Positions 5,875 through 25,758 of a stretch of 32,000 nt of DNA are shown here, piece after piece (position 1 is the stretch's first letter; each line of letters starts with the position of its first letter). The stretch lies in NCBI GenBank assembly GCA_963822045.1, contig CAWGGE010000001.1, positions 5,385,231 through 5,417,230 of the forward strand. Reading direction: 5' to 3'. The notes under the pieces were generated by a model. It was not told the DNA's origin, searched no databases, and was given only the letters and a program-made list of their open reading frames with translations. The position numbers and the translations under genes are program-made. The DNA is from an uncultured delta proteobacterium (lineage in GTDB: Bacteria > Desulfobacterota > Syntrophobacteria > Syntrophobacterales > Syntrophobacteraceae).

Positions 5875-5970
5875 GGTTTACTATCTCAAAACGTCTTCTT
5901 ATCTTGTTGGTTTCCATAATGTGGTTCACTATCTTACAATCTCATCTTATCTTGTTAGTTTTCAAAATGT
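5875..5970. repeat. two tandem 48-bp direct repeats (iteron-like), upstream of the Rep gene
   Basis: Repeat 1 (5875-5922) is ggtttactatctcaaaacgtcttcttatcttgttggtttccataatgt. Repeat 2 (5923-5970) is ggttcactatcttacaatctcatcttatcttgttagttttcaaaatgt. They match at 39 of 48 positions and share the core tcttatcttgtt. The surrounding sequence is AT-rich. Confidence 0.7.
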
Positions 5971-6591
5971 AGAGCTAAACTAGAAACATCATTTCCTAAC
6001 CATTCCAGAATACCTCTATAACTTCTTTTTTTCTTTATGGGCATGATGACAACATTGTATTTGGTTGTCGTGAACGAGAAGAAAGAACATATCATATTGA
6101 TCTGATTATGGAATATGGGTTTTAGGGCTTTTAGAACTATCGGCTGCGCCGTGCTGCGCCACCGTCACTCGCTCTCAAAAAGTGTAACATTCAGTTGAAA
6201 GTTATATGCAGAGCCATTCTACTCTCAGTTCACTGATTAGAATCGATAGCCAATCCTATCAGAAGCTGGTACGTGGTCTCGAAATGAGGTATCCAAACCA
6301 TATCACCTCCAACCCTTAACCACCGAATGACCCAGTTCCTCCATCGATACCAGAGTATCGCAGCCACTATTCCCCATCATTGGTAACGCACTGATTTGAT
6401 AACAACTGTATCCAGCATCACCGCAGACACTTTCCGTCGCCGGGACCGGTCTCAACCTCCAAGATCTTAATCTTCATCGGTGGGAGCCACTCAGATCAAT
6501 TCGGAAGCGTCTGGATGACCTTCTGAGCCATCATCTCGGAAAAAACGATGTGGAGTATGGGTGAATTTGGGAGCCATCATTTTGAGCTTCG

Positions 6592-6675
6592 TTGACAATG
6601 TCAATCAACGTTAATTAACGGCACTATACATTATACTCTCGTTAATTAACGTTAGCCGCTTGACAATGTCAATCA
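6592..6675. promoter_or_regulatory. nested palindrome array (operator-like): P1-P2-19 nt-P2-8 nt-P1
   Basis: P1 is ttgacaAtgtcaa, a perfect palindrome, at 6592-6604 and 6660-6672. Each copy extends to the 16-nt direct repeat ttgacaatgtcaatca. P2 is cgttaattaacg, a perfect palindrome, at 6609-6620 and 6640-6651. The central spacer contains tatact. P1 contains a consensus -35 hexamer, TTGACA, on both strands. Confidence 0.6.
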
Positions 6676-7733: not shown

Positions 7734-7769
7734 TACATAATACCTCCCTCTCTATTACTGATCGGTATC

Positions 7770-7798
7770 AACTTAACAGACTGCTATAGCCATGTCAA
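7770..7798 (-). promoter_or_regulatory. sigma70-like promoter for the ATPase gene
   Basis: On the minus strand: TTGACA (7798-7793), a 17-nt spacer, then TAAGTT (7775-7770). It lies about 35 nt upstream of the RBS and ATG at 7733. Confidence 0.4.
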
Positions 7799-8415
7799 GA
7801 AATAATTTCCATTCTTCTTAATGAACCGAAATGTTCGCCAATTACGAAAAGTGGCATAACAATGTATACGCTCCTTCAGGATCGTACTCTCAATATATGC
7901 AAAAGATTATTAATCACGATTTAATGGTTTTGCCATGGAAATAATCTTTGTACCACTTACGAAAGGCGCTGCGCACGTAGATATCTATCCTATGGTAAGG
8001 ACTTTGCATTTCGGTTAGTGTCTGAAACTTGGATGAACCTATCTTCCTCCAAACCCACAATATTTTGTATAATTAAATATTAAATACACCAGCCACTACC
8101 TAATGCGACTGAATGTGACAGTTTTTTCCTGCGACCTGCATGTTCGCAAAGTCACCGCCTAAGAAAAATAAAGAAAAGTAAATAATTCTTTTCACAAAGT
8201 CCATGTTCAATTCAGTCCCCTTACCGTCGTAATTCGTTTTAATCATCATTTCAGTCGCTTATCGTGTTTCCTCGCATCCGAAATCCAATCGGACCTCAAA
8301 ATATATACACAATATGAAACAACAGAGAACGACCGGGAGCGCAAGGTATGAAAATTAGGTAACCGGTCGGAATTTACCCTAAAATTTTTCCCCTCTCTCT
8401 GAGAAAGGAAAGCGA

Positions 8416-8757
8416 ATGAACGAGGAATATCTGACAACTCCACAACTGAGCGACCGGATCAAGCACGCTCCACAAACCATCTACAACAATGTTAGTAAAG
8501 GGACATGGAAGCTCGGTCAACACTACGTTAAACCGAGCAGTAGAAAAATCTTATTCAAGTGGTCAGCTATTCACGCATGGCTCGAAGGATCATGCGGAGA
8601 CGGGCAGCGTGAACATGATCTGACCATTGAAGCCTGCGGATCACGTGATGAAGGATCATGTGGATCAGAACCCATCGGAGCCAATGTGGATGATGGAGAG
8701 AAGGGTCGGAATATCAAAAAGGCTTCCGTAAAGCCAAAGTGTAGGATCAACATCTAA
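8416..8757 (+). CDS. AlpA/excisionase-like HTH DNA-binding protein
   Basis: The N-terminus, LTTPQLSDRIKHAPQTIYNNVSKGTWKLGQHYVKPSSRKILFKWSAIHAWL, fits the AlpA / MerR-type excisionase pattern. It sits directly upstream of the integrase. An RBS (AAAGGAAAG) precedes the ATG. The C-terminal tail is odd and overlaps GGATCA repeats. Confidence 0.65.
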   Translation: MNEEYLTTPQLSDRIKHAPQTIYNNVSKGTWKLGQHYVKPSSRKILFKWSAIHAWLEGSCGDGQREHDLTIEACGSRDEGSCGSEPIGANVDDGEKGRNIKKASVKPKCRINI

Positions 8758-8790
8758 CTCGTCCCTGCTTCTGCACATTTTGAGGATGGT

Positions 8791-10218
8791 GTGTTATATC
8801 GTAAGAGTGAAAAGTCAGCCGAAGGAGGTGTCATATGGAAGGGTCATAGTATGAGTAATGCCGAAGAAACAACGGCAAAGGTGCTGGAATTTACCGGATC
8901 GAAGAAGCAGCCTAAGAACAAGCGGAAATCAGGCATAAATCGCAACAGATTCGGTTCCGTTCGGAATGTGAACGGGAAAGTGTATGTTAATTTCAGTTAT
9001 TTGAAGGAACCTGTCAGGGAACCATCTGGCTTGGTTTGGACTAACGAGAACATGCGTGCTGTCAGAGAACAACTTGATCGGATCGGTGTTCAAATCAAAT
9101 CTGGCACATTCAGGTATGCTGAGGTATTTCCCGAAAGCAAGCATCGGGAATTCTTTACCACCAAAGAGCGAGAATTGTTCGGGTTCAAAAAGAGTCCCAA
9201 GGATGTAGTATTCGGGGAATACATTTGGAAATGGTTTGATCTCAAAAAGGGCAACGGAACAGCGGGTGGAAGAACTCTTTACGCCTATAAAGGCTACATA
9301 AGGGGCTACCTCGAACCCTATTTCGGCAAACTGGACTTCAAGTCTATCAACGCCAACGTCATGGAGAAGTTCATTGCTTGGGCACGGGAACAGAATACAA
9401 AAGGAAAACCGGTCAAAATTGAGTCCGTCAAGAAGTACTTCGTTGTTCTTAGGATGGCTTTAACGGAGGCTACGATTGAGTTTGAATGGAAAGACTTTAA
9501 CCCATTCTTTGGCTTTAAGGGCTTCAAGAACCGCACCGATGTGCCTGTAACCTGTGTTGAAGTGGAAGAGGGCGACCTCGAAGACATTTTGGATGACGAG
9601 GGTGAACCAATTCTCCCATTCAGTATCGATGAAGTCAGAGTAATTATTCTGGTTCTCCCCGATCACTGGAAGCCGTTTTTTTGTTTTGCCGTATGCGCAG
9701 GTTTGCGACCGGGAGAATTAATCTGCTTGATGCCACATGATATCGACTGGGAGCAGGATACCGTCACGGTCAGAAGAGCATTGACCTTGGATATCAATGG
9801 GCGACCGATGGTTGGGAGAACCAAGAATAAATACAGCAGAAGAACAATCCGCCTCACCAAATCGATGAAGGAAGCTCTTCTTGCGCAGAAGAAGGTTTAT
9901 GACCAATTCGGCGGCAAATATTTTTTCTGTTCGCCTACCGGGTGCAGAGTTGATCTCAGCAATTTCAGGAACCAAGTGTGGATAAAGACTTTAAAGGAAG
10001 CGAAGGTCGGCTACCGTTCGATCAAACAGACACGTCATACCTTTGCGACCTTGGCAATCAGCCGTGGGGAGGATTTGTTGTGGATCTCCAAAGTCATGGG
10101 GCATGCGAACACCCAAATGGTTCATACACATTATGCTCGGTTCATTGAAAATGCCAGTGGGACACTGAATGGGTCGAAACTCGACACTCTGTTCGAGACT
10201 AACAGTAACGGCAGGTAA
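8791..10218 (+). CDS. int: tyrosine recombinase / phage-type integrase with an N-terminal arm-binding domain
   Basis: Catalytic-domain motifs are present: AGLRPGEL (Arg), TRHTFAT (His-x-x-Arg), MGHAN and HYARF (Tyr). The N-terminus has GSVRNVNGKVYVNFSY, an arm-type DNA-binding domain pattern. The start is ambiguous (GTG 8791 or ATG 8851). Confidence 0.9.
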   Translation: MLYRKSEKSAEGGVIWKGHSMSNAEETTAKVLEFTGSKKQPKNKRKSGINRNRFGSVRNVNGKVYVNFSYLKEPVREPSGLVWTNENMRAVREQLDRIGVQIKSGTFRYAEVFPESKHREFFTTKERELFGFKKSPKDVVFGEYIWKWFDLKKGNGTAGGRTLYAYKGYIRGYLEPYFGKLDFKSINANVMEKFIAWAREQNTKGKPVKIESVKKYFVVLRMALTEATIEFEWKDFNPFFGFKGFKNRTDVPVTCVEVEEGDLEDILDDEGEPILPFSIDEVRVIILVLPDHWKPFFCFAVCAGLRPGELICLMPHDIDWEQDTVTVRRALTLDINGRPMVGRTKNKYSRRTIRLTKSMKEALLAQKKVYDQFGGKYFFCSPTGCRVDLSNFRNQVWIKTLKEAKVGYRSIKQTRHTFATLAISRGEDLLWISKVMGHANTQMVHTHYARFIENASGTLNGSKLDTLFETNSNGR

Positions 10219-10261
10219 AGAGAGGGAAACATGATTTTGGCAAAATTTTGGCAAAATCAGC

Positions 10262-10312
10262 GCAAAAAACACGACAGGTTAGCCCATTTTGAGGCTAACC
10301 TGTTGATTTTCC
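10262..10312. terminator. bidirectional intrinsic terminator between the integrase and the tRNA
   Basis: A perfect 11-bp stem, acaggttagcc (10275-10285) pairing with ggctaacctgt (10294-10304), closes an 8-nt loop. An A-run (10265-10270) lies on the left and a T-run (10307-10311) on the right. It can therefore terminate both int (plus strand) and the tRNA (minus strand). Confidence 0.7.
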
Positions 10313-10316
10313 TGAA

Positions 10317-10388
10317 GCTGGCGATAGGAGTCGAACCTACAACCTGCTGATTACAAATCAGCTGCTCTGCCATTGAGCTACGCCAGCC
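10317..10388 (-). tRNA. tRNA-Thr (anticodon UGU); CCA not encoded
   Basis: The reverse complement folds as a cloverleaf. Acceptor stem: GCTGGCG/CGCCAGC. D arm: GCTC-AATGGCA-GAGC. Anticodon arm: GCTGA-TTTGTAA-TCAGC. Variable loop: AGGTT. T arm: GTAGG-TTCGACT-CCTAT. Discriminator: T. Total 72 nt. Confidence 0.85.
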
Positions 10389-10656
10389 CATTTTTGCGAA
10401 TCCTTATATCACAAGGGTTTGCGGGAAACAAGAATTAAGGGACAATTGAGAGGAGCGTAGCGGGGTGGATGAGCACGGATGAACCGGATAAAGACTGAAG
10501 TGTTGAATTAGATGAACGCTCCCCGTTCGAGTCCACTACGCTCCTCTTGTATTTTCAGGAATTTTCTACCAGAAAAGCACGAATTTCGGAAATGAGATAC
10601 TGAATGCCTCCGGAAGTCCATTATGAATGACAGCTTCCCCTGTGCCCTCATCCAAA

Positions 10657-12302: not shown

Positions 12303-13091
12303 GTGAGAGCAAATACCCGCAAAACCAGTTTAGGCGTTTTGGCAGTTGCCCTTTTCATGTCGATTGCTTTTGCCGGATCTTTGGCGTTGGCAGAAGGGCC
12401 CAGCAAGGATTGGACTGAACAACAGCTTCAGGAATTCGCAAAGAAACCGTGGACCCAGGCAGAGCTTAATGCCATGGGCAGAGCGCCCCGTTACGTTATC
12501 GAGAAAAAACTCGACCCGCGCTTTGAAGGCGAAAATCTGACCCAGGAGCAGCTTTTCCGCAACGGCCAACGCGAATTCAGAGCTATTTTCCTGCAGTACG
12601 GGATCGGAATTTCGTCCAACGATTTCTACAAGATATGGATGGAGCAAGAAGGTTTTAAAAACCCCAAAATAAAGCTTCTGGATGTTCGTTCAGAAGCAGA
12701 ATATGACCAGGGGCGCGTGCCCGGCGCCATTCGCGTTGACGCCGGTCTTGCCTATTGGGTCCTGGCGGGCAAGGCCCCTGACCCAACGGCCGATTACTAC
12801 CTTATGTGCAAAGGCGGAAGCCCCGAAAATGGCGGGAATCGCGGCGCCTATGTAAAGAAGATCATGTTGGACCTGGGCTACAGCGGCAAGATCACGAACA
12901 TTACCGACGGCTTCAGAGGCTGGGCTGAAAATGGGTTCCCGGTAGTCAACAATCACGGCCTGTTTATGTTGTTGCCCGGGACCTTCCAGGTTCCCGAGAA
13001 GGATTCTTTTGTGAAGGTAAAATCTATCGGTAACGATTCCTCCACTGCGTCCATGGGCCTGGCACAGAAGTGGGGACTCAAAGATTGGTAG
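12303..13091 (+). CDS. secreted rhodanese-domain sulfurtransferase
   Basis: A signal peptide (LAVALFMSIAFAGSLALA) is present. The rhodanese domain reads LLDVRSEAEYDQGRVPGAIRV...YYLMCKGGSPENGGNRGAY...GFRGWAENGFPV, with the active-site Cys loop. The start is GTG, preceded by the RBS AAAGGAG. Confidence 0.8.
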   Translation: MRANTRKTSLGVLAVALFMSIAFAGSLALAEGPSKDWTEQQLQEFAKKPWTQAELNAMGRAPRYVIEKKLDPRFEGENLTQEQLFRNGQREFRAIFLQYGIGISSNDFYKIWMEQEGFKNPKIKLLDVRSEAEYDQGRVPGAIRVDAGLAYWVLAGKAPDPTADYYLMCKGGSPENGGNRGAYVKKIMLDLGYSGKITNITDGFRGWAENGFPVVNNHGLFMLLPGTFQVPEKDSFVKVKSIGNDSSTASMGLAQKWGLKDW

Positions 13092-13206
13092 AAGGCGGAT
13101 ACCCCCAAGGCGGCATACTGGTTTGACAGGGCGGGATGATCTGTGCCGGCGGGGGGAAATCGGCGGCGCCAACTCAACGGGACGGAGTACAGCGCATCGC
13201 CATGTG

Positions 13207-13296
13207 CAAAAGAATCCCCGTGCATGGCCCTGGTTTTTCCAATTGTGGAAAGCTCCGGCTGGAAAGCAACAGGGTCTTGGCGGGGATTCCTTTTTT
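13207..13296 (+). terminator. long compound stem-loop followed by a T6 run (terminator or leader element)
   Basis: The outer stem is gaatccccg (13212-13220) pairing with cggggattc (13281-13289). Inner helices include ggccctg/cagggtc and tttcca/tggaaa. An A4 run lies upstream and tttttt lies at 13291-13296. It sits between the rhodanese stop (13091) and the methyltransferase start (13416). Confidence 0.4.
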
Positions 13297-13415
13297 CTGA
13301 AAACGTGGAAAGTGTTTTAACGTCGGCAATGAATGTGGGCGCCGGAAGCCGGCTTCTTCCGGCATTAAACGGGATTCATCCTCACGCTGCAAGCCAATGA
13401 GGAAAGCGAGGAACG

Positions 13416-14294
13416 GTGATGTCGAATAACCTGACTACAGTGGTAAAATCTTCAAAAAAAGAGGTGCGTATTTCTCGCGACACCGGTGTTGCAATCATTG
13501 GAGAGCGCATCAATCCGACCGGCCGAAAAGTGCTTCAGGCTGAACTGAAGGAAGAGAAATTCGACATGGTGCGCAGGGATGCCGCTGCACAGGTGGCCGC
13601 AGGCGCCGCCTTGTTGGATGTCAATGCTGGTTTGCCCGGCGCCGACGAGCCAGCCCTGATGATCCGGATAATCGATGAAGTAAGGGCAGCGACCGATGAT
13701 TTCCCGTTGTGCATCGATTCCCCAAAGACTGCAACACTCGATGCTGCGCTGAGGCATTACTGTAAAGACGGCGCCCGGCCGATGGTTAATTCGGTCAGCG
13801 CTGAAACTAAACGCCTCAAGGAAGTGCTTCCGCTGATAAAAGAGTACGGATGTTCCGTAATAGGACTTTGCAGCGGCGACGCCGGGATTCCAAAGACTGC
13901 CGAACAAAGATTCCAGTATGCTGCAACGATTATTGAAGAAGCCGATAAGTTGGGCATACCGGTCGAAGACATAGTCATCGATCCTTTGGTTCTAACTCTT
14001 GGGACGGAATGGCGGGCGGGGAAAATAGTTTTGGACGCAATCCGCATGATCGTTGAAAAATTCGGTGTAAATATCACCATGGGAGCCAGCAACATTTCAT
14101 TCGGCATGCCGGATCGTGAAAACCTGACGGCCTTCTTCATGGCCATGTCGGTTGAAGCCGGATTGAGCTGTCCGATCTGCAATCCTTTGAAAACGCATGA
14201 AGCCGTGGCATTGCGAGCTGCCGACCTGGTTATGGGAAGAGACCGCAGCGGGATGAAATGGATAAAAGGCTTTAGGGCTATGAAGAATTCCTAG
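13416..14294 (+). CDS. pterin-binding methyltransferase (methyl-tetrahydrofolate:corrinoid type, MtrH/AcsE/MtgA-like)
   Basis: The pterin-binding TIM-barrel pattern is present: IIGERINPTGRK, LDVNAG, SIDS (in CIDSP), VNSVS, IDPLV and GASNISFGMP. The likely start is ATG 13419. Confidence 0.8.
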   Translation: MMSNNLTTVVKSSKKEVRISRDTGVAIIGERINPTGRKVLQAELKEEKFDMVRRDAAAQVAAGAALLDVNAGLPGADEPALMIRIIDEVRAATDDFPLCIDSPKTATLDAALRHYCKDGARPMVNSVSAETKRLKEVLPLIKEYGCSVIGLCSGDAGIPKTAEQRFQYAATIIEEADKLGIPVEDIVIDPLVLTLGTEWRAGKIVLDAIRMIVEKFGVNITMGASNISFGMPDRENLTAFFMAMSVEAGLSCPICNPLKTHEAVALRAADLVMGRDRSGMKWIKGFRAMKNS

Positions 14295-14353
14295 AATTGG
14301 GGCGCAAAAGATTAAAATCGTCGACCTTGGAGAGCGCATAGAAAGGCAAGATG

Positions 14354-14947
14354 TTAAAGGGCATCGGACGTGGAATCGTGGTCAGCGCAATTGAACCCGA
14401 TTAGAATGGTTCCGAGTGCGGAATCCTTGGTATCCCATCCGAATTTATTTTTCAAATACAGATCAGCCATGCCGATAGGAGAAGCGGACAGGACATCCCG
14501 AACACCATGAACGCCCTCTATTTCAGGGAAGGCAAGGGCTCGGCAAATAAAGACCGGCGGCTGCCCCGAAGCTGCTTTTATTCTATCGTAATAGATGACG
14601 AAATTTTTGCCGATGGCCTTTATTTTTCCTGACGTTTTGAGGAATTCCAGATGGTCTTTGTCAGTAATTTCTTCGCCGATAACGGCGTCACCCATCATCC
14701 AGGACAGGCAAGGCTTGTCCGCATGCCTGAATTCGTTGTTGTTGAGAACGACACAGATAAGCCGCCTCGATATGACGTCAAAGACCCCCTGGTTGCAATA
14801 TTTCCCGAGGCCACCAAGTCCTTTCTCCTGAAGGTCTTTTTCGAACCGGCAAATTGCATTTACGTCTTCTTCTCCGATCCACCCGACATCAAGTATCCCC
14901 CTTGTAGTTCGCAGGGCTTCTTCGACCTTCTCTATAAGAGCTTCCAT
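14354..14947 (-). CDS. hypothetical protein, 197 aa, no recognisable domain
   Basis: Clean ORF with ordinary soluble-protein composition, convergent with the methyltransferase gene and divergent from the transporter gene. No B12-binding DxHxxG motif was found. Confidence 0.55.
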   Translation of the reverse strand: MEALIEKVEEALRTTRGILDVGWIGEEDVNAICRFEKDLQEKGLGGLGKYCNQGVFDVISRRLICVVLNNNEFRHADKPCLSWMMGDAVIGEEITDKDHLEFLKTSGKIKAIGKNFVIYYDRIKAASGQPPVFICRALAFPEIEGVHGVRDVLSASPIGMADLYLKNKFGWDTKDSALGTILIGFNCADHDSTSDAL

Positions 14948-16735: not shown

Positions 16736-18928
16736 GTGGTGGGAGAAAGGCAGAATCGGCATGTGCTGGGGACAGTACTCTTCCCGATACTCGGCCTTGC
16801 CCTGATCGTACTCATTTGCATTGCCATATCGCGAGATGAGCATCAGCAGTGGAAGGTCTACCAGAGGGCGTACCTGGAAAATCGTGCAAAAATCCCGGAA
16901 TCCTCGTTAAAGGGCGCTCTCTCCGAAGCGGAGCTGCGAAACTGGGTGGAAGCCGCTCGACAGTTGCCGCTTCAAATAAAGGAAATGAGACCGGCTTTAA
17001 CCGGAAAGATAGAGCGTTGTCTGACCTGCCACGAAGGAATAGAGGAAATCAGTCCGTCGCACCCGGTGGATTCGTTCGGATGCGTGATCTGCCATGGCGG
17101 TGACGGACTTGGGGTTACTGAGGATATCGCACATAGGGGACTCATCGGCGGTCGAAATCCATCCGACCTGGCTGTCATTGATCAGACTTGCGCAAGGCCC
17201 GGGGGGCAATGTCATGCCGGGCGGAAGTTGGAGTCTCAGAACTCCGTTGACAGGGTCCGAAGGGGCGTTATGGCTACGATGAGCGGAGTCATAGCGAGTC
17301 TGAGGTATTCATGGAATGCCCAACCTGCGCCGGAAGCCGGTTACGCATCAGTTGGAGTGAAAGGCCCCGTTAGGAACGGAGGCGAGGAGACCTCGCTGTT
17401 GCCGGTTCCTCTGATGGACCATGTGCGGGGCGCGACACTCAAGGACCAGATGAACCAGTCCCTCACGATCTCAGGGCAGCCCGCCGACGATCAGTGGAGG
17501 AAGTTCTGTGCAAGGTGCCATATTTGGAGCGCGCGCGAGGACGGGCCATCCGCTCACTCGTCGGGTTGCGCCGCCTGCCATGCCTTATACAACCCCAAGG
17601 CCACTTATGAAGGACTTGACCCTACTCTGCCGAAAAACAAGCCGGGTTATGCCCTGCGGCATCAATTGACCACAGCGATACCAGTCGAGCAGTGCTTGCG
17701 CTGTCACAATCGTTCGGGGCGCATAGGACTCTCCTTTACTGGTCTTCAGGAGGCTGACGGCTATGGGACTCCATATCGCGGCGGCCTGGCCAATCTCCGG
17801 CAGCTTTCGGGCGAGAGGGATGTGCGCCACTTAGTTGCGGACATACATTTCGAGAAAGGCCTGGCCTGCACGGATTGCCATACGGGAAACGAAATTATGG
17901 GGGATGGCCATATATGCGGGCACATGCGCGAACAAGTCGAAATCCGTTGCATCGATTGTCATGGCGAACCCGGGCAGCCGCCCAGGACAAAAGTTTTGAC
18001 GCCCCGGGATGAGGAAGCGCTCTGGAAGGCAAGGGCGTTGAGAATGCCTGATATGGTATCCACCGAGGTGGGAATGACGCAACGAGGGACGCCTGTTTTG
18101 AATCTGCGGATGGAGGGCGGCAAGACTATTCTCAGGAGTAAGCTGGATCAAAAGGACCACCTGTGTCCGGTTATCAGCGATGACAAGTATCACCGTATTC
18201 CCGGACATGGACCATCTCGCATGGAATGCTCTACCTGTCACAGCCGCTGGGCCCCCCAGTGCTACGGCTGTCATGACTACCGGCGGCGTGGAGAGAGCAT
18301 GACGGATTCAATGCTCGGGAAGACAACCGATGGAGCGTGGCAGGAGACGAGGGATTTTTACCGTTATGAAAAACCGGCTCTGGGTATCAACTCACGGCAT
18401 CGAGTATCGGTAATTGTGCCTGGCTGTCAGGTCGTCTATACCGAGCTGGACGCTAATGGGAATGCTCTGCCCGGGCTTGAAGACAAAATCTTTACAGGCC
18501 CGGGTTTTACGCATGGCATCGTCTCTACGCCTATTTCGCCCCACACTACACGCACAGAAGTGAGATCATGCGAGGAGTGCCATTCGGATCCAAAGGCGAT
18601 GGGGATAGGGCAGGGGCTTTTTCAGGCCGGAAGGACCTGGGATGAGAATACGTTTACGCCACTGCTGAAGCCCGGGATCAATCCTATGGGATTTGCGTGG
18701 GAAAGCCTTTCAGACTCGCGGGGACTTCCCCTGGCCTCAACGACTCATTCCGGTGCGCGCCCCTTCAACGGAGAGGAGTTGAAACGGATACTCAGGGTGG
18801 CGCCGTGCCTGCCATGCCACGGCCGATATGACGATCCCATATGGACGGATCCAGCAGATCCCTTTGTTCGTGCGAAACTTCCTGCCCACCAGGAGAAGGT
18901 TGCCCGTTTTCTGGAAGGCCCCAAATGA
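16736..18928 (+). CDS. membrane-anchored multiheme cytochrome c (11 CXXCH plus 1 CX6CH)
   Basis: An N-terminal TM helix (LGTVLFPILGLALIVLICIAI) is present. The CXXCH motifs are CLTCH, CVICH, CARCH, CAACH, CLRCH, CTDCH, CIDCH, CSTCH, CYGCH, CEECH and CLPCH, plus CARPGGQCH. It is a paralog of the next gene. The start codon is ambiguous (GTG). Confidence 0.9.
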   Translation: MVGERQNRHVLGTVLFPILGLALIVLICIAISRDEHQQWKVYQRAYLENRAKIPESSLKGALSEAELRNWVEAARQLPLQIKEMRPALTGKIERCLTCHEGIEEISPSHPVDSFGCVICHGGDGLGVTEDIAHRGLIGGRNPSDLAVIDQTCARPGGQCHAGRKLESQNSVDRVRRGVMATMSGVIASLRYSWNAQPAPEAGYASVGVKGPVRNGGEETSLLPVPLMDHVRGATLKDQMNQSLTISGQPADDQWRKFCARCHIWSAREDGPSAHSSGCAACHALYNPKATYEGLDPTLPKNKPGYALRHQLTTAIPVEQCLRCHNRSGRIGLSFTGLQEADGYGTPYRGGLANLRQLSGERDVRHLVADIHFEKGLACTDCHTGNEIMGDGHICGHMREQVEIRCIDCHGEPGQPPRTKVLTPRDEEALWKARALRMPDMVSTEVGMTQRGTPVLNLRMEGGKTILRSKLDQKDHLCPVISDDKYHRIPGHGPSRMECSTCHSRWAPQCYGCHDYRRRGESMTDSMLGKTTDGAWQETRDFYRYEKPALGINSRHRVSVIVPGCQVVYTELDANGNALPGLEDKIFTGPGFTHGIVSTPISPHTTRTEVRSCEECHSDPKAMGIGQGLFQAGRTWDENTFTPLLKPGINPMGFAWESLSDSRGLPLASTTHSGARPFNGEELKRILRVAPCLPCHGRYDDPIWTDPADPFVRAKLPAHQEKVARFLEGPK

Positions 18929-20868
18929 AGCGGCTTTCATTCACTATCCTCACGATTGCTTCTATCCTGTTGCCTGGAGGGGAGTTGGGCTGGGCATCCT
19001 CTTGTTTGAAATGTCATCCTCAAGTCCAGGTGATGTTTCATGCCGCCTCATGTATCGATTGCCATCTTGGCCATGACGATAAGCCCGACAAACCCTCGGC
19101 GCATGAGGGAATGATTGCCAATCCATCCGACTTCACGAATCCTGGTTTTGCTTGCGGCCGTTGTCATGAAGAAGAGACCCGACAGGTAAATCGAACTCTT
19201 ATGGCTACCGCGGCCGGTATTATCAACCAGACGCGGTTTCTGTGGGGAGCGCAGCAGGACGTGCTGGCCCGATATGGGGCCAGAGAGGTCGATGGACTCA
19301 AGGCATTGCCCAGGGGAGATGAATCCGGGTCCCTGGCCGATGATTTGCTGCGCCGCCGATGCCTTCGATGTCATTTGGGGTCGAACGGCGTCATCGGTTC
19401 TGCGGACAACCAGAATGATGATACACCTGCCGGCGCCGGTTGCGCCGCGTGCCACGTCCTGAACCGGACAAACGGGATTTCGCCCAACGAGCAGCTTATC
19501 GGCCCGGGTACACAAGGGTCCACTCAAGCCCACCGGGTGTCCACAGCCATACCGACGTCCCAGTGCCTGAGGTGCCACAATGGAAACCGTGCAGGTGCGG
19601 ACTATGCCGGGCTGTTCGAGCGGGACCACTCTCTTGCCTACAACTTCGAGGCCGTAGATCCTGACGTTGCTCCGCACCTTATGAAGCACGCTTACCATTA
19701 TCTCCTTCCCGATATTCATTATGAACGGGGGATGCATTGCATCGATTGCCATCCGGTAGAAGAACTCATGGGGGAAGGCAAAATCCACTCCCAGTCACAG
19801 GACCAGGTCGGAGTGCGATGCGCGGATTGCCATGGTCTTCCGGGAAAACCGCCAAGGACGCGAGAGGTTCCGGCCTCCGATATTCGGGCTCTAAGGGCCG
19901 CACAGGCTAATGGCCACTACGATCTCCAAGCCGGCCGCAGGGTTATCGAAACCTCCGGGGGACATCTGTTGACGAACACGGCGCAAGAGGACGGCGCTTT
20001 TTTTCTCACATCGAAAGTCGATGGTAAAGTGCACCGGATACCTGTTTTAGGGAGTGAACCCTCCGGGACGGAACCTCTCAATCATCGCATCCCCGGGCAC
20101 CTTGACAGGATGGAATGCAGCGCCTGTCACGCGGCGTGGACCTTCCAGGACTTGGGTCTACATCTGGTGCGGCTGGACTATCCAGATTACGGGCCTTGGG
20201 GTTGGCTGACAACCCAGGGAGATCCTCAAGCCCGGGAGGTGCTGGAAAGTAATTTTCTAAAGCCTCGCGAACAGTGGGTTGCGCCGAGATCACGGGATTG
20301 GCTGACAGGCCGTTCCGAAATTGGAGTCTGGCTTGGGGGCTATTCGATGCGCCGTTGGGAGGGCCGGATTCTGGGAATGGATTCCCGGGGCCTTGTCAGC
20401 GCCATTAGACCTCAATACCAGTACTGGCTCAGTTGGGTTGATGCGCAGGGGAAGACGCTTCTGGATTCAACCATTCCTCGATTGAGCGACGGTCGCGCGG
20501 CGCTGGCATGGAACCCCTATGCTCCTCACACGATAAGGACCCAAACTGTAGATTGCTGGGATTGTCATGGAAATCCACGGGCTATGGGCTTAGGGCCGAC
20601 GGTCGTCCGGGCGAAAGACGGGCGGCGTGCCGGGTTGGGCAGATCACAAGCTGACGGTCTTGGAATCGATTTTGACCTGGATCGGGTAATCGACGACATG
20701 GGGCAGCCTGTTCAGACGTCTTCAGTGGTTGGAGCCGGTTTTTTGAACGCGGCACAACTTGAGAGAATGTCGGCCCATAATCCCATCTATATAAGATACC
20801 TCCTTGAGTTTTTCGAAGGCAAGGAGGCCTATGGAGATCCCGCTGGATTTACAGGCCCCAAAAAGTGA
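18925..20868 (+). CDS. periplasmic multiheme cytochrome c (10 CXXCH), paralog of the upstream gene
   Basis: The likely start is ATG 18925, overlapping the upstream TGA (ATGA); the track ORF starts at 18841. The signal peptide is MKRLSFTILTIASILLPGGELGWASS. The motifs are CLKCH, CIDCH, CGRCH, CLRCH, CAACH, CLRCH, CIDCH, CADCH, CSACH and CWDCH. It shares the blocks AIPxxQCLRCHN and HRIPGHxxxRMECSxCH with the upstream protein. Confidence 0.9.
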   Translation: MKRLSFTILTIASILLPGGELGWASSCLKCHPQVQVMFHAASCIDCHLGHDDKPDKPSAHEGMIANPSDFTNPGFACGRCHEEETRQVNRTLMATAAGIINQTRFLWGAQQDVLARYGAREVDGLKALPRGDESGSLADDLLRRRCLRCHLGSNGVIGSADNQNDDTPAGAGCAACHVLNRTNGISPNEQLIGPGTQGSTQAHRVSTAIPTSQCLRCHNGNRAGADYAGLFERDHSLAYNFEAVDPDVAPHLMKHAYHYLLPDIHYERGMHCIDCHPVEELMGEGKIHSQSQDQVGVRCADCHGLPGKPPRTREVPASDIRALRAAQANGHYDLQAGRRVIETSGGHLLTNTAQEDGAFFLTSKVDGKVHRIPVLGSEPSGTEPLNHRIPGHLDRMECSACHAAWTFQDLGLHLVRLDYPDYGPWGWLTTQGDPQAREVLESNFLKPREQWVAPRSRDWLTGRSEIGVWLGGYSMRRWEGRILGMDSRGLVSAIRPQYQYWLSWVDAQGKTLLDSTIPRLSDGRAALAWNPYAPHTIRTQTVDCWDCHGNPRAMGLGPTVVRAKDGRRAGLGRSQADGLGIDFDLDRVIDDMGQPVQTSSVVGAGFLNAAQLERMSAHNPIYIRYLLEFFEGKEAYGDPAGFTGPKK

Positions 20869-21250
20869 GGAATACAAGGACCGATGCCATGGCGATGAAG
20901 ATTATCTGATGAAAACCGAACTGGTACTGCTTCAAAGGGGCGTGCCCGCCGAAATGCGGAATCCAAGGCAGGCAGGCCACGAATATGAGCGCAGCCACAG
21001 GAAATGCGAACCCGGCGATCAGGGGTGGGAAATGGCGGAGGAGAACCTGGAGCCAAATGATGAGCCAGGGAGCTTTGATCTCGGCGGGTGCCGGGCTACC
21101 CGGCTCCACTGCATTATAACCTGCCGGCATGGCCAGCGCGAGGCCGATGAGTATGAGTGTCAGGATCATAACCGTGAGGAACTCCCTTGCAAGGAGTTCA
21201 CGGCGCACAATGAGCCTGTGATTGTTTTGGGGTTCGGTCATTTGCGTCAA
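20849..21250 (-). CDS. cytochrome b C-terminal / b6f subunit-IV-like membrane protein
   Basis: It has three hydrophobic helices and the motif KAPWLIIWLQVLLRHFPPLIAG. This resembles the PEWYF/KAPWYFLGLQELL signature of the cytochrome b C-terminal domain and PetD. ATG 21241 is an alternative start to TTG 21250. Its 3' end overlaps the cytochrome gene by 20 nt (convergent). Confidence 0.7.
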   Translation of the reverse strand: MTQMTEPQNNHRLIVRRELLAREFLTVMILTLILIGLALAMPAGYNAVEPGSPAPAEIKAPWLIIWLQVLLRHFPPLIAGFAFPVAALIFVACLPWIPHFGGHAPLKQYQFGFHQIIFIAMASVLVFLTFWGL

Positions 21251-21293
21251 GACAATCCTCTGAATTTATATTCCTAACCGGTTGCAGGAGCAT

Positions 21294-21770
21294 ATGTCAA
21301 GGAACCAGGAAGACATGCTTTTCAATTCAACTGTGGGGCGCCGCAGGTTCTTTTCTTATTTTGGATGGGCTCTGGCGGGGCTGGCCTCGGCATCTATGAG
21401 TTGGATCACGTGCAGGTTTCTTGCGGGGGACCAGACACATTCAGGGTTGGAACCGTGCACTTTCGGGCCCCCGGGGGCTTATCCCGTTGGCACGGCCGCA
21501 AAAAAGGGCAGGGTGGTACTCTTTCGGGACAAGGATGGGTTTTGGGCTGTCTCTGATGTTTGTACTCATCTTGGTTGCCGGCCGGCTTTTCTTCAGGAGC
21601 AGAATATTTTCGTATGCCCATGTCATGGCAGCCGGTTTGACAGCGAAGGCCGCCTGCAGGCCGGACCGGCAACTCATGGCATGGCTTTGGCCGCGCTGCG
21701 TCTTGATGCTCAGGGGGCTCTTGTGGCATACCCCAAAGAAAAAGTCCTGCCCGGATACAGGTTTGTGTGA
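21294..21770 (+). CDS. Rieske [2Fe-2S] protein with a twin-arginine signal
   Basis: A TAT motif (GRRRFFSY) is followed by a TM helix. The cluster ligands are CTHLGC and CPCHGS. The RBS AGGAG lies 5 nt before ATG 21294; the track starts at TTG 21282. Confidence 0.9.
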   Translation: MSRNQEDMLFNSTVGRRRFFSYFGWALAGLASASMSWITCRFLAGDQTHSGLEPCTFGPPGAYPVGTAAKKGRVVLFRDKDGFWAVSDVCTHLGCRPAFLQEQNIFVCPCHGSRFDSEGRLQAGPATHGMALAALRLDAQGALVAYPKEKVLPGYRFV

Positions 21771-22396
21771 TGAAGCTGGATAATTTCATAGGGCATATCC
21801 ACCCTGTAAAGATCTCGGAAGAACGAGTCCGCATAGGAACCACGTTTTGCCTTGGCGGGGCAGCCTTTTTCCTGTTCATTGTTTTGGGGATAAGCGGGCT
21901 TCTTCTCGCCGTCTATTATCTTCCAACGGCAGAGGGGGCACGAGCGGGAATTCATGACCTCGACCACGTAATTCCTTTCGGTTGGCTAATGAGGTCTATC
22001 CACTTCTGGGCCGGCCAACTCATGGTTGCCGCATTGGTGCTTCATACCGCCAGGGTTGTTGTTGCTGGCGCGTATATGCCCCCGAAACATCTTAACTGGC
22101 TTGTCGGAATAATCCTGTTCATCCTGACTGCCGGGCTTGATTTTTCGGGTTATGTTTTAAGATGGGATGCGCAGACCTTCTGGGCGGCCCAAGTTGTGTG
22201 TCAACTGCTGGGACAGGTACCCGTTATTGGAGGCGGGCTGCAGCGGGTTTTTGCAGGTGGTTCCGAAATGTCTGAAGTTGGCTTGTTGCGGTTTTATGTG
22301 ATTCACTGCCTGATAGGACCAAGTCTGGCATTGGCTTTCATTATGTATCACTTCTGGCGAGTGAGAAGGGATGGAAGACTTGGCCAACTGCTTTGA
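21770..22396 (+). CDS. cytochrome b6-type (four-helix, N-terminal half) cytochrome b
   Basis: The start overlaps the Rieske stop (TGATG). His pairs lie in helix B (SIHFWAGQLMVAALVLH, 14 apart) and helix D (VIHCLIGPSLALAFIMYH, 15 apart, b6-like). A GYVLRWD motif is present. The protein is 208-209 aa, so the C-terminal domain is encoded separately. Confidence 0.9.
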   Translation: MKLDNFIGHIHPVKISEERVRIGTTFCLGGAAFFLFIVLGISGLLLAVYYLPTAEGARAGIHDLDHVIPFGWLMRSIHFWAGQLMVAALVLHTARVVVAGAYMPPKHLNWLVGIILFILTAGLDFSGYVLRWDAQTFWAAQVVCQLLGQVPVIGGGLQRVFAGGSEMSEVGLLRFYVIHCLIGPSLALAFIMYHFWRVRRDGRLGQLL

Positions 22397-22616: not shown

Positions 22617-22865
22617 ATGAATTGCAAGCAGATCGTTCTTATAGGCGTGTGCCTGTTGTTCCTCGTTGGAGTGTCGATGGTTCGCACCGGTGAATGCCAG
22701 GAGACTAAAGGAAATGAAACCACAGCCACGGCCCCTGCTCCGCAGGGTACCGCGCCGGCTAATCCCGCAGCTCCTTCTGATGATAAGGCAAAAGAAAAGG
22801 AAAAAGCCCAGACAGATACATCCGCAAAACCCGCTGAAAAAAAGAGAAGCTACGAGGGGTGCTGA
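22617..22865 (+). CDS. small secreted low-complexity (Ala/Pro/Lys/Thr-rich) protein, 82 aa
   Basis: The signal peptide is MNCKQIVLIGVCLLFLVGVSMV. The mature part is TGECQETKGNETTATAPAPQGTAPANPAAPSDDKAKEKEKAQTDTSAKPAEKKRSYEGC, with Cys near both ends. It has its own promoter-like and terminator elements. Confidence 0.5.
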   Translation: MNCKQIVLIGVCLLFLVGVSMVRTGECQETKGNETTATAPAPQGTAPANPAAPSDDKAKEKEKAQTDTSAKPAEKKRSYEGC

Positions 22866-23341: not shown

Positions 23342-24526
23342 ATGAGCAATAATTTTCTGTCGATAAAGCTTAAAGAGGGCTATCGCTTTCTTTTCCACCA
23401 GCAATGGCCGGATATGGTGGGAGGGGTCTTGTTGGGTCTGCTGTCCATTATGATCGTAATGTGGTCCCGCCCCTGGGGCATTGTTGGAGGGATGCGCAAC
23501 TGGGCAGACTGGATTTTCTACGGCGTTGGCATTATTTCGAAAGCCCCGGAGCATCCTCTCTTTTTCTCGTCATCAATCATGGATATCGGCCTCCTGCTGG
23601 GCGCCTTCGCCGCAGCACTGATGGCGAAGGAATTTGCTCTGCGCACCTCTCCCAAGCTCGAGATCATGAAGGGCTTTTGCGGGGGGATACTAATGGGAGT
23701 CGGTTCTTCCCTGGCCATGGGGTGCAACGTCGGGGCCTTCTATAGTACACTGATAAATCTTTCAGCGAACGGCTTTACCATGATGGCGGGATTGATCGTT
23801 GGTGCGTACATCGGACTACGTTATCTTCTCTGGGAACTGGAAAATTTCCCGGCGCCTCCGGCTGCGACGGTCAAGCCTAAGCAGAATGTTAACGCGTTCG
23901 ACTTAAAAGCGGTCCAGCCATATGCGGGAGGCGCAGTACTCCTGGGCATGCTGATTGCTGCCTATATTTACAACCGGTATGATTACACGGAAATTGGTGG
24001 CCTGCTTCTTTTCGGAATGTTTTTCGGGATCGTTCTCCAGCGTTGCCGTTTCTGTTTTGTACGTGCCTTTCGCGACCCCTTCATGACGGGCGACGCTGCA
24101 GTAGTGAAGGCGGTTGTGGTCAGCGTCCTGATCGGAACCGCCGGCGTTGCCATAATGAAGTGGAACGGATTCAGGCCGGCATCTCTTTACGTGGTCCCAA
24201 CCTTCGGATGGGGTTCCCTGCTTGGCGGTATGATTTTTGGAATCGGCATGGTGATAGCGGGCGGATGTGGAAGCGGGACACTCTGGAGGGTAGCCGAGGG
24301 ACACCTCAAACTATGGGTGGCGCTTATTTCATTTGCCTTAACCAACTCGTTGATGAACATATTTTTAGTGGGCACGGGGTTGAAGGCCAAGCTCGGCTTG
24401 GCAGTTTTCCTGCCGGACGTCTTCGGCTGGCAGGGAGCTCTTGGAGTCATCGCTTTGGTTCTATTCCTCTGGTATTTCGTTTTGTCCTGGAATGAGGAAA
24501 CGAACAAATTTACCGTTGGCGTATAA
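23342..24526 (+). CDS. yeeE: YeeE/YedE-family sulfur-compound (thiosulfate-type) transporter
   Basis: A polytopic membrane protein with the family's conserved Cys-containing loops: SLAMGCNVGAF, LQRCRFCFV and IAGGCGSGTLW. Confidence 0.9.
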   Translation: MSNNFLSIKLKEGYRFLFHQQWPDMVGGVLLGLLSIMIVMWSRPWGIVGGMRNWADWIFYGVGIISKAPEHPLFFSSSIMDIGLLLGAFAAALMAKEFALRTSPKLEIMKGFCGGILMGVGSSLAMGCNVGAFYSTLINLSANGFTMMAGLIVGAYIGLRYLLWELENFPAPPAATVKPKQNVNAFDLKAVQPYAGGAVLLGMLIAAYIYNRYDYTEIGGLLLFGMFFGIVLQRCRFCFVRAFRDPFMTGDAAVVKAVVVSVLIGTAGVAIMKWNGFRPASLYVVPTFGWGSLLGGMIFGIGMVIAGGCGSGTLWRVAEGHLKLWVALISFALTNSLMNIFLVGTGLKAKLGLAVFLPDVFGWQGALGVIALVLFLWYFVLSWNEETNKFTVGV

Positions 24527-24587
24527 GTGAAATGAGATCCAGGTTCTTTCAGGCACACTATCCGTCTTATTTTACAGGAGAATTTGC

Positions 24588-24824
24588 ATGGACGATATTA
24601 AACCCAATGAAACCTTGGATGCACGCGGTCTCAGTTGCCCCATGCCTCTTTTGAAGACCAAAAAAGCCATTGAAAAACTTGCTTCCGGTCAAATTCTGGA
24701 GATCTTGGGAACGGACCCCGGGACCGCCAACGACCTTCCGAAATGGGCGAAGCGATCCGGTCACGACTTTCTCGGCGAAAAGGAAGACGAAGGATTCAAC
24801 CGGTACTTTTTACGGAAAAAGTAG
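24588..24824 (+). CDS. tusA: TusA/SirA-family sulfur carrier protein
   Basis: The signature LDARGLSCPMPLLKTKKAI (the CPxP active-site Cys motif) is present in a 78-aa protein. The RBS CAGGAG precedes the start. Confidence 0.9.
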   Translation: MDDIKPNETLDARGLSCPMPLLKTKKAIEKLASGQILEILGTDPGTANDLPKWAKRSGHDFLGEKEDEGFNRYFLRKK

Positions 24825-24873
24825 CTCTGTTGAGGCTTAACCCCTTGGATATCTCTTTAAGCGGGGAGTTATT

Positions 24874-25182
24874 ATGGCTGAAAAACTTGGCATTTTCGTG
24901 TCCTCCGACAAGAGTTTACGCCATGTCATTGAAACGGCGAAAGCTGCCGAAAGAGCCGGCAAAGAGGTAATTGTCTTCTTCACACATAAGGGGATTTTTC
25001 TCACCCAGGAGCCCGAGTTTGAGGAATTGACCGGCCATGCAGAGTACTCCGTGTGCAATGTCGGCTGGGAGGCCAATGGATTGAAAGGGAAAACAGTCCC
25101 CGGAATGGATTCAAAGGGATTTGGCACACAAGCCCGGCACGGAGAGATAATTGAAGACTGTGACAAATATCTGGTCCTTTAA
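24874..25182 (+). CDS. DsrE-like small sulfur-relay protein
   Basis: A 102-aa protein with a DsrE-fold pattern: LGIFVSSDK, EVIVFFTHKGIF, and a conserved-position Cys in YSVCNVGWEANGL. Confidence 0.65.
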   Translation: MAEKLGIFVSSDKSLRHVIETAKAAERAGKEVIVFFTHKGIFLTQEPEFEELTGHAEYSVCNVGWEANGLKGKTVPGMDSKGFGTQARHGEIIEDCDKYLVL

Positions 25183-25253
25183 CAGGTTCAAGAGCTGAAT
25201 TGTTTTGGCGGCTGATGATTTTTTCGGCGGGTTAAAGTTATCGGGGGAGAGAC

Positions 25254-25535
25254 ATGAATAAAGTTGCGTTTCTCGTTCATTCAAAAGAGGAGTTGTGGGA
25301 GGGGCTTCGCTCGAGCCTCGGTCTGATCGTTGAGAACAATGATGTGATCATGGCTGTCCTGGACCAGGAAGTGGAGATGACTCCTGAGTTTAGAGAAAAT
25401 CTAGACTGGTTTCTCGAAATGGAGGGAAAGATCTACTCGAATCGCGCGGCCAATCAGGAACACGGGTTTGAGCTGATAACCATCGAAGGGCTGGGCGAAA
25501 AACTCAAGGGAATGGATTTTATCGTTCCCTTTTAA
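25254..25535 (+). CDS. DsrE/DsrF-fold-like conserved hypothetical protein (no Cys)
   Basis: A 93-aa protein with an alpha/beta pattern (KVAFLVHS...DVIMAVLDQ...GKIYSN...DFIVPF). By position it is the fourth gene of the YedE-TusA-DsrE operon. Confidence 0.5.
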   Translation: MNKVAFLVHSKEELWEGLRSSLGLIVENNDVIMAVLDQEVEMTPEFRENLDWFLEMEGKIYSNRAANQEHGFELITIEGLGEKLKGMDFIVPF

Positions 25536-25584
25536 GGTGCTCCAATATACTCGGGAGCAATCCAAAACAGGCCAGGAGTAGGTA

Positions 25585-25758
25585 ATGAAACTCTTACAGG
25601 TGTTCCGTTCCGAACCAAGTCCGGATGTGCTCAAATTGGCGGATATCATCTCTGAGGGTAATGAGACCATCCGCATCGACCTATTCCAAGGGGATGTCGA
25701 TTATGATCGACTGGTGGAGTTGATATTCACTTGCGATAAGACCGTAAGTTGGTGGTAA
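25585..25758 (+). CDS. 57-aa DsrH/TusB-like mini-protein (below the ORF-track length cutoff)
   Basis: The RBS AGGAG (25574-25578) precedes the ATG at 25585. The sequence is MKLLQVFRSEPSPDVLKLADIISEGNETIRIDLFQGDVDYDRLVELIFTCDKTVSWW. Its ends resemble TusB/DsrH (MLHTLHRSP... and ...IDYTDFVRLTVKHPSQMAW, recalled from E. coli TusB), but the middle is missing. Confidence 0.5.
   Translation: MKLLQVFRSEPSPDVLKLADIISEGNETIRIDLFQGDVDYDRLVELIFTCDKTVSWW

Follow-up and report, generated by a model that had tools for sequence, protein, structure and literature searches.

How a Rieske/cytochrome b pair passes on its electrons when no cytochrome c1 or f is encoded beside it is the question raised by five genes (positions 16736–22396) in a stretch of 32,000 nucleotides from an uncultured delta proteobacterium of the Syntrophobacteraceae (assembly GCA_963822045.1, contig CAWGGE010000001.1, positions 5,385,231 to 5,417,230; this whole stretch is referred to as the window). 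The genes encode two large multihaem cytochromes, here called MHC1 and MHC2, a subunit-IV-like protein, a Rieske protein and a cytochrome b of the b6 type. Rieske/cytochrome b complexes are central energy converters, and c1-less versions with very large multihaem partners are known from genomes alone. An earlier note on this DNA had described the five genes as a candidate quinone-linked redox complex. We confirmed its observation with corrections, and its interpretation is partly supported. Judged by sequence, the module is related to the Geobacter ExtMNOPQ/Cbc6 system (CbcMNOPQR) as a distant variant and not as a strict member, and it is already recognised by name though functionally uncharacterised. 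The module probably forms a menaquinol-oxidising Rieske/b6-type complex in which the membrane-anchored 12-haem MHC1 takes the role of c1 or f and is paired with soluble MHC2. Most likely, it functions as a menaquinol:multihaem-cytochrome oxidoreductase whose electrons enter a periplasmic chain with a link to sulfur metabolism.

Gene content and cofactor sites

An open reading frame (ORF) check of the window recovered all five genes, and the family of each was checked (Table 1). No ORF in the whole 32 kb besides MHC1 and MHC2 contains a CXXCH motif, which means that there is no c1/f-type gene, mono- or dihaem; the earlier note had stated this for a monohaem one. Instead, 22 haem motifs are found in two adjacent genes, a number far beyond chance, and the two encoded proteins are paralogues (37% identity). 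MHC1 has one N-terminal transmembrane (TM) helix (residues 13–31), and its first haem motif lies at residue 95, about 60 residues past the helix. It carries 11 canonical CXXCH motifs and one C152-x6-C159-H160 site. Both cysteines and the histidine of the latter site are 100% conserved among 104 homologues. At its position in the alignment, other ExtM proteins have a canonical CXXCH motif and MHC2 has CGRCH; across the family, the third haem site takes the form CXnCH with n = 2, 4, 6 or 9–12. As the CX6CH site is invariant and aligned with canonical motifs in relatives, we count 12 haem sites in MHC1, which agrees with the anchored 12-haem protein of 730 residues that had been proposed. MHC2 has 10 CXXCH motifs and a signal-peptide-like N-terminus, also as proposed, and only its length had to be corrected, from 648 to 647 residues. 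All twelve sites of MHC1 and all ten of MHC2 are conserved.

The Rieske protein contains the RRRFF motif for twin-arginine translocation (Tat) and the cluster motifs CTHLGC-x12-CPCHGS (Pfam Rieske, 2e-13), so that its reading as a Tat-exported Rieske protein stands. Cytochrome b and its spinach b6 counterpart (6rqf_I, E 2e-38) can be aligned with no gap. Residues H79, H93, H180 and H195 of the former fall on b6 H86, H100, H187 and H202, the ligands of haems bL and bH; they are conserved in 22 relatives and show the b6-like spacing H-x13-H and H-x14-H. C28 of cytochrome b (TFCLGG) aligns to b6 Cys35 (FYCLGG), and is kept in all split-type relatives and absent from the fused type. Following established knowledge of b6f for this and the other residue roles, we take Cys35 to be the residue to which haem cn/ci is covalently attached.

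The subunit-IV-like protein has three hydrophobic TM segments. It scores just under the cut-off of Pfam Cytochrom_B_C (PF00032; 19.5 bits, cut-off 20.7), 9 of its 15 homologues match this family, and a profile of the homologues matches, in the PDB, cytochrome b residues ~227–339 only (E 3.6e-4). These matches point to a 3-TM subunit IV that is encoded by a gene of its own and has homology to helices E–G of cytochrome b. The AlphaFold2 model of the protein is poor (predicted local distance difference test, pLDDT, 62) because its alignment had only 15 sequences, and a Foldseek search with this model is meaningless. APWL of the subunit-IV-like protein aligns to IKPEWYFLF of mitochondrial cytochrome b; the family consensus of this Qo motif is APW[IYFL], and the Geobacter type has SAWF or AAWF. 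The earlier note had assigned the gene to the right family while missing that it lies on the opposite strand. NCBI and JGI records also call this minus-strand gene; in JGI, its homologues carry the name 'quinol-cytochrome oxidoreductase complex cytochrome b subunit'.

Two gene pairs of the module are coupled. The start codon of MHC2 overlaps the stop codon of MHC1 as ATGA, and the start of cytochrome b overlaps the stop codon of the Rieske gene (GTGATG). MHC2 and the subunit-IV-like gene overlap tail to tail by 20 nt (20849–20868), with FWGL-stop antisense to TGPKK-stop. We compared the module with homologous loci in other genomes, which were gathered by a genome scan seeded from ExtM and labelled L001–L085. 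A tail-to-tail overlap of 20–26 nt also occurs in other genera (L002, L004, L005, L011, L028, L082). Such an overlap implies that transcription in the antisense direction crosses one gene of the pair. On its other side, the subunit-IV-like gene is separated from the divergent Rieske start by 30–45 nt. A promoter and terminator scan of this junction gave weak consensus matches that were not clearly above those in shuffled sequences, so that transcription units cannot be read from it. An ORF antisense to the subunit-IV gene (20804–21277, plus strand, 157 residues) has no family match and a non-protein-like composition, and was rejected as a gene.

Relation to Geobacter ExtMNOPQ/Cbc6 and distribution of the module

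The earlier note did not recognise the cytochrome pair or the gene set, and in this it was wrong: NCBIfam has the names ExtM, ExtN, ExtP and ExtQ, and the set appears in two publications (PMC2825233, PMC5877670). In G. sulfurreducens, extHIJKLMNOPQS encodes ExtM with 12 haems, ExtN with 10 haems, the Rieske protein ExtO, cytochrome b (ExtP), a membrane protein (ExtQ) and a lipoprotein cytochrome (ExtS) (PMC5877670). Butler (2010) reported a conserved 'bc complex' cluster (PMC2825233), and the 12-haem and 10-haem cytochromes, Rieske protein, cytochrome b and membrane protein are present in all Geobacter species (PMC2825233; Jahan 2018, PMC5877670). Cbc complexes of Geobacter had been mentioned before as a comparison, without the link to Cbc6/ExtMNOPQ. 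The accompanying statement that no characterised complex matches does hold. Our literature search found no biochemical study of this kind of complex and nothing specific on this arrangement in Syntrophobacter or Desulfobacterota, and a review of September 2026 describes the physiological role of Cbc6 as unknown (PMC13591261). Geobacter Cbc6/ExtMNOPQS is conserved and named, and has remained unexplained since 2010.

Each protein of the module has its Geobacter Ext counterpart as its best family match, with all scores of the window under the NCBIfam equivalog cut-offs. MHC1 matches ExtM (NF040943) with 415 bits (4.7e-124; cut-off 800), where Geobacteraceae ExtM reaches 987 bits. MHC2 matches ExtM with its N-terminal part (1.4e-76) and ExtN (NF040967) with its C-terminal part only (5.8e-36, 124 bits; cut-off 200). 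Cytochrome b scores 221 bits against ExtP (NF040969; 1.2e-65, cut-off 290) compared with 162 bits against generic cytochrome b6, and the subunit-IV-like protein 24.7 bits against ExtQ (NF040970; E 2e-5, cut-off 150). As a blastp reference, we used a Geobacteraceae metagenome-assembled genome (MAG) with a genuine ExtMNOPQS cluster (L077), whose own ExtP also scores just 220 bits. MHC1 is 34% identical to the L077 ExtM over 617 residues (1e-109), MHC2 is the reciprocal best match of its ExtN in the window, and the identities of the Rieske protein to ExtO, cytochrome b to ExtP and subunit IV to ExtQ are 42%, 39% and 32%, respectively. The NCBIfam label 'selenite/tellurite reduction operon' rests on an ExtI porin mutant only, and we did not use it as functional evidence. 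The NCBIfam model 'FeS_ExtO' (NF040968) was ignored for the Rieske assignment because it matches ExtN-type cytochromes and neither Rieske protein. It has the same length and the same matches as NF040967 and scores 574 bits on Geobacteraceae ExtN, and is probably a mislabelled ExtN cytochrome model.

The module and Geobacter ExtMNOPQS (Cbc6/CbcMNOPQR, GSU2935–GSU2930) have the same subunit set without c1, and both have sulfur- or selenium-related neighbours. Several features of the module are novel relative to the Geobacter type: MHC1 has an N-terminal membrane anchor whereas Geobacter ExtM has a signal peptide, its third haem site is CX6CH, and MHC2 is a full-length paralogue where Geobacter ExtN has ~400 residues. 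Moreover, the overlapping subunit-IV gene lies inverted between MHC2 and the Rieske gene (order M, N, Q, O, P), whereas the Geobacter genes are co-directional in the order ExtM-ExtN-Rieske-cytochrome b-ExtQ. Blastp with the Geobacteraceae cluster found no ExtS homologue in the window. Unlike in Geobacter, the ExtHIJKL linkage (porin, MccSep) was not recognised: the window has no third cytochrome ORF as a candidate for ExtKL and no recognised porin among its annotated ORFs, although ExtI and ExtKL sequences were not searched directly. The sole rhodanese-like protein in the window lies 3.6 kb upstream of the module, and its length is unrelated to that of the Ext rhodanese.

Other Rieske/cytochrome b systems share parts of this design. 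The b6f and Firmicute-type b6c complexes have the same split cytochrome b (4-TM and 3-TM parts), the H-x13-H and H-x14-H spacing, the Cys35 equivalent and the Rieske CTHLGC/CPCHGS motifs. Unlike these complexes, the module has two large multihaem cytochromes in place of cytochrome f or c, APWL in place of PEWY, and presumably menaquinone as its quinone. The 'partial complex III' (PetAB) of cable bacteria and other Desulfobulbia likewise comprises a Rieske protein and cytochrome b without c1, and it has been proposed to hand quinol electrons to periplasmic multihaem cytochromes in sulfur oxidation. Cable bacteria possess ExtM/ExtN homologues, which were reported at other genomic places. In two Desulfobulbia loci (L016, L021), the Rieske, cytochrome b and subunit-IV genes are linked with both cytochromes as in the module (Rieske-cytochrome b-IV-8-haem cytochrome-MHC1 type-MHC2 type). 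These clusters differ in the extra 8-haem membrane-anchored cytochrome with class-I domains and in the usual orientation of the subunit-IV gene. The Rieske/cytochrome b complexes of anammox bacteria resemble the module in concept, as multihaem c-type subunits replace c1. Unlike them, the module has no match to HAO-like or other known multihaem enzymes and no NAD(P)-linked subunit, and the anammox complexes differ in phylum and neighbouring genes.

The closest relative is a Syntrophobacteraceae MAG (L001; 92% protein identity), in which synteny begins at position 10297 and reaches as far as the stop codon of cytochrome b (22396). The exact arrangement of the window (MHC1, MHC2, inverted subunit IV, Rieske, cytochrome b) is found in L001–L007, L011, L028 and L082, and the inverted position of subunit IV also in L008 and L009. 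The loci with the exact arrangement belong to Syntrophobacteraceae, Desulfobaccales and Desulfarculales (Desulfarculaceae), and the rearranged, membrane-anchored form of the module is widespread in these groups. L082 is the complete genome of Desulfoferula mesophila, in which annotators also put the small gene on the opposite strand; it is a cultured organism in which the proposed function can be tested. Other loci have the orders Rieske-cytochrome b (fused)-MHC1 type-MHC2 type (L048) or MHC2 type-Rieske-cytochrome b-MHC1 type (L061, L069). Within the fetched flanks, a Rieske and/or cytochrome b gene is found near the pair of MHC1- and MHC2-type genes in 23 of the 25 informative loci. This shows that the pair tracks Rieske/cytochrome b across changes of gene order. 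The co-conservation that the earlier note had suggested checking therefore holds for the pair, but not for the entire ExtM family. At 50% identity and E <= 1e-30, this family falls into 300 clusters, and species-representative genomes contain at least 565 of its loci.

The cytochromes and the Rieske/cytochrome b genes could also be mere neighbours, with MHC1 and MHC2 serving as electron stores or wires for other quinol oxidases, or with MHC1 itself oxidising quinol in the manner of NapC/NirT or ImcH. ExtM-family genes do occur without Rieske/cytochrome b in many genomes, the subunit-IV gene of the module is divergently oriented, and one NCBI record calls a homologue 'NapC/NirT family'. Against this speak the 23 of 25 loci in which the association persists despite reshuffled order, and the window, which encodes no other candidate acceptor for the Rieske protein. 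MHC1 itself has no Pfam or NCBIfam match to NapC/NirT (PF03264), and its haem 1 does not follow directly behind the TM helix. We consider such a separation of the two gene sets quite improbable.

Two further arrangements concern the partners of ExtM-type cytochromes. In a Desulfobacterales MAG (L074, 4208–7207), the ExtM- and ExtN-type cytochromes are apparently fused in a 999-residue ORF that contains 19 CXXCH motifs, and the genes for Rieske, cytochrome b and subunit IV come after it; unless it is a sequencing artefact, this fusion supports physical association of both paralogues. In Desulfomonile-type genomes (L084, 9645–12151; L024–L027, L030, L031), the subunit-IV-like gene runs into the start of an ExtM-type gene whose product is membrane-anchored, and no Rieske gene, N-terminal part of cytochrome b or MHC2 is found within 8–10 kb. 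In L084, this pairing of a C-terminal cytochrome b fragment with a 12-haem cytochrome alone forms a two-gene unit. The translational link of subunit IV to a TM-anchored MHC1 in these loci counts in favour of the proposed quinol-oxidising complex.

Table 1. Positions of the module genes, selected sites within them and context genes in the window.
Feature	Position	Strand	Basis
MHC1, membrane-anchored 12-haem ExtM-type cytochrome c, 730 aa	16736..18928	+	NCBIfam ExtM best match
CX6CH (CARPGGQCH), non-canonical third haem site of MHC1	17189..17215	+	Motif and alignment
Haem-10 motif CYGCH, specific to the ExtM/MHC1 type	18260..18274	+	Alignment of homologues
PGCQ with invariant lone Cys564 of MHC1	18419..18430	+	Alignment; role inferred
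MHC2, secreted 10-haem paralogue, 647 aa	18925..20868	+	ExtM/ExtN matches
Subunit-IV-like / ExtQ-like 3-TM protein, 130–133 aa, likely ATG at 21241	20849..21250	-	
APWL in place of Qo-site PEWY	21062..21073	-	Alignment to cytochrome b
Tat-exported Rieske 2Fe-2S protein, likely ATG at 21294, cluster motifs 21561–21632	21282..21770	+	
Cytochrome b6-type, ExtP-like, 4 TM	21767..22396	+	NCBIfam ExtP
Context: secreted rhodanese-like protein	12303..13091	+	Pfam Rhodanese 1.6e-10
Context: YedE-like transporter, TusA, DsrE-like gene, two small genes	23342..25758	+	HMM matches (TusA, YedE)

Conserved residues of the multihaem cytochromes

The haem density of MHC1 and MHC2 is low (one per 61–65 residues), and the expectation of sizeable non-haem domains is borne out by the AlphaFold2 model of MHC1 (pLDDT 89.4, predicted template modelling score 0.88). 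In the model, a long helix forms the N-terminal part, the haem-binding stretches are helical, and regions rich in beta structure lie at ~418–477 and 506–600. ExtM and ExtN are the best family matches of the cytochromes, and Foldseek found no match in the PDB for the MHC1 model at E <= 0.001, which reflects either a fold without a solved relative or poor handling of haem-poor models by Foldseek. Like MHC1, the multihaem proteins NrfA, MccA, OTR, HAO and MccSep have many haems in a large periplasmic protein. MHC1 differs from these proteins in the absence of a family-level sequence match, a Foldseek match and the motifs CXXCK and CX15CH; neither motif occurs in MHC1 or MHC2, as had been noted before. 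A profile of the ExtM family matched, in the PDB, local haem motifs of NrfA and octahaem nitrite reductase alone (E 1.7e-5, ~80 residues), a weak similarity of haem packing. We rejected these local matches as evidence for an enzyme family.

The two paralogous types differ in a set of residues. The haem-10 motif (QCYGCH), Cys564 in PGCQ and the haem-12 motif are present in all ExtM/MHC1-type proteins and in none of the MHC2 type (240 homologues). Each of 104 ExtM-type sequences has Cys564 (100% conservation), and the MHC2 type has lost it along with haems 10 and 12. For its twelve haems, the ExtM family has eight non-motif histidines that are conserved at 80% or more, and Tyr291 and Lys620 are conserved at 99% and 84%. 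At least one haem without bis-histidine ligation would fit this pattern, although the pattern is not proof of it.

MHC1 could therefore be read as an enzyme in its own right, in which haems 10 and 12 and Cys564 would form a site for sulfur or selenium compounds, as in enzymes with histidine/cysteine-ligated haem, and the five proteins would be a self-contained quinone-linked oxidoreductase. The residues above are what suggests this reading, together with the low haem density and the beta-rich domain around haem 10 and Cys564. ExtM homologues that stand alone in Shewanella and other bacteria are reminiscent of a soluble enzyme, and sulfur-handling genes lie nearby. Cys564 also recalls the Cys-ligated haem of MccSep. 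MccSep (ExtKL) is encoded immediately upstream of extM in Geobacter. This pentahaem selenoprotein reduces polysulfide with the help of its Cys-ligated haem and is essential for sulfur respiration (bioRxiv 10.1101/2025.11.18.688581). However, MHC1 matches no known multihaem enzyme in sequence or fold, the missing conserved histidines may be an alignment artefact in loops, and a lone conserved cysteine could be structural. That MHC1 is such an enzyme seems to us possible and, on balance, unlikely. We give similarly little credit to the broader proposal that ExtM-type 12-haem cytochromes are an unrecognised multihaem enzyme class, with two family-specific haems and an invariant cysteine, and that the module would act as a Rieske/cytochrome b-dependent oxidoreductase for polysulfide, thiosulfate/tetrathionate or selenite. 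If true, sulfate reducers, syntrophs, sulfur disproportionators and Geobacter would have a new means of coupling sulfur chemistry to the quinone pool.

Electron flow and the sulfur-related neighbourhood

In the quinol-oxidising complex that we favour, the five proteins would assemble so that menaquinol is oxidised at a Qo site made of cytochrome b and the 3-TM subunit-IV-like protein. Of the two electrons, one would pass from the Tat-exported Rieske cluster to the membrane-proximal haems of MHC1 and then along a periplasmic chain of 22 haems, at the end of which an acceptor with a moderately positive potential would take it up. The second would return to the quinone pool through haems bL and bH and probably a covalent haem ci, and this Q-cycle would conserve energy. 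The recurrent neighbours of the module would place the exit of electrons in sulfur or selenium redox metabolism. For example, the chain may re-oxidise quinol from sulfur-compound oxidation or, alternatively, may provide electrons for periplasmic sulfur-compound reductases.

These neighbours occur on both sides of the module. Downstream in the window are genes for a YedE/FdhT-like transporter, TusA, a weakly DsrE-like protein of 102 residues and proteins of 93 and 57 residues, of which TusA and YedE only were confirmed by hidden Markov model (HMM) matches. The cluster resembles the YTD (yedE-tusA-dsrEFH type II) layout, which a 2026 study linked to sulfur oxidation capacity in sulfate reducers. 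Homologues of these genes adjoin ExtM-type modules in L011, L028, L082, L048, L061, L069 and L074; in all, YedE/TusA/DsrE-like genes lie beside the module in eight loci, in at least four arrangements. Upstream, the gene for the secreted rhodanese-like protein is syntenic in the window, L001–L005 and L008. Psr/PhsA-like Tat molybdoenzymes adjoin the module in L005, a second Syntrophobacteraceae MAG, and in L009, L053, L072 and L077; three of these loci are from Geobacteraceae. The MccSep gene beside extM in Geobacter belongs to the same sulfur-related context.

The same neighbourhood would fit a complex that runs in reverse. Here, a periplasmic donor would pass electrons through MHC2 and MHC1 to Rieske/cytochrome b, and the proton-motive force would drive menaquinone reduction as in the uphill branch of Acidithiobacillus. 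The adjacent YedE-TusA-DsrE-like cluster is tied in the literature to sulfur oxidation in sulfate reducers. Rieske/cytochrome b complexes are reversible in principle. However, reduced sulfur donors have redox potentials low enough for direct menaquinone reduction, which makes an energy-consuming route unneeded, and no sequence feature indicates a direction. We therefore regard reverse operation as very unlikely.

Several observations weigh against the forward, quinol-oxidising complex. The five genes cannot be a single operon, since the subunit-IV-like gene lies on the minus strand. A PEWY, PDWY or PVWY motif was not found at the aligned position of the Qo site, where the usual glutamate is gone. 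ExtM-type genes without the paralogue generally have no Rieske/cytochrome b nearby, as in Shewanella (L083), in a solitary anchored copy (L085) and in Thermosulfurimonas marina (L081), where ExtM lies behind NrfC/NrfD-type genes. Because ExtM-family proteins occur without Rieske/cytochrome b, the cytochrome is not tied to the quinol module. In L001, the closest relative, the YedE cluster does not adjoin the module, and synteny extends no further than the stop codon of cytochrome b. By standard potentials, a Rieske centre that oxidises menaquinol is expected to lie well above the polysulfide/sulfur potential and cannot drive the reduction of these compounds. As its potential is too high, the link to sulfur would not be a simple path from quinol to polysulfide. 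More plausibly, the chain serves acceptors of positive potential or drains quinol from sulfur-compound oxidation. Together, the wide occurrence of the module, the pair of cytochromes that tracks Rieske/cytochrome b and the sulfur-related neighbours offer a concrete hypothesis of how the quinone pool may be emptied in sulfate reducers and syntrophs that have 'sulfur-oxidation' gene sets.

Some further features of the window were observed. Just after cytochrome b, a small secreted low-complexity protein of 82 residues that ends in EGC is encoded (22617–22865), and L001, L002 and L004 have weak homologues (34–41%) at a variable distance (~0.2–1.4 kb) downstream from their cytochrome b genes. In the upstream region 12303–14947, the rhodanese-like protein has an unusual long active-site loop (CKGGSPENGGNR). 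Its gene is conserved upstream of the module in L001–L005 together with those for a methyltetrahydrofolate:corrinoid methyltransferase-like protein and a 197-residue protein without a family match. Positions 4400–10400 hold an integrative element of lower GC content (0.39–0.47, against ~0.50–0.58 for most of the remaining window), with genes for a tyrosine integrase (8791–10218), a replicase, a primase-C-terminal protein and an AAA_25 ATPase. The element abuts a tRNA-Thr(TGT) gene (10314–10388, minus strand), and the synteny with L001 starts just past it, at 10297. Finally, a minus-strand ORF at 2–4399 of at least 1466 residues, which runs off the window start, contains RHS repeats, DUF6531 and a weak transglutaminase-like N-terminal match, and probably encodes an RHS-type toxin or wall-associated protein.

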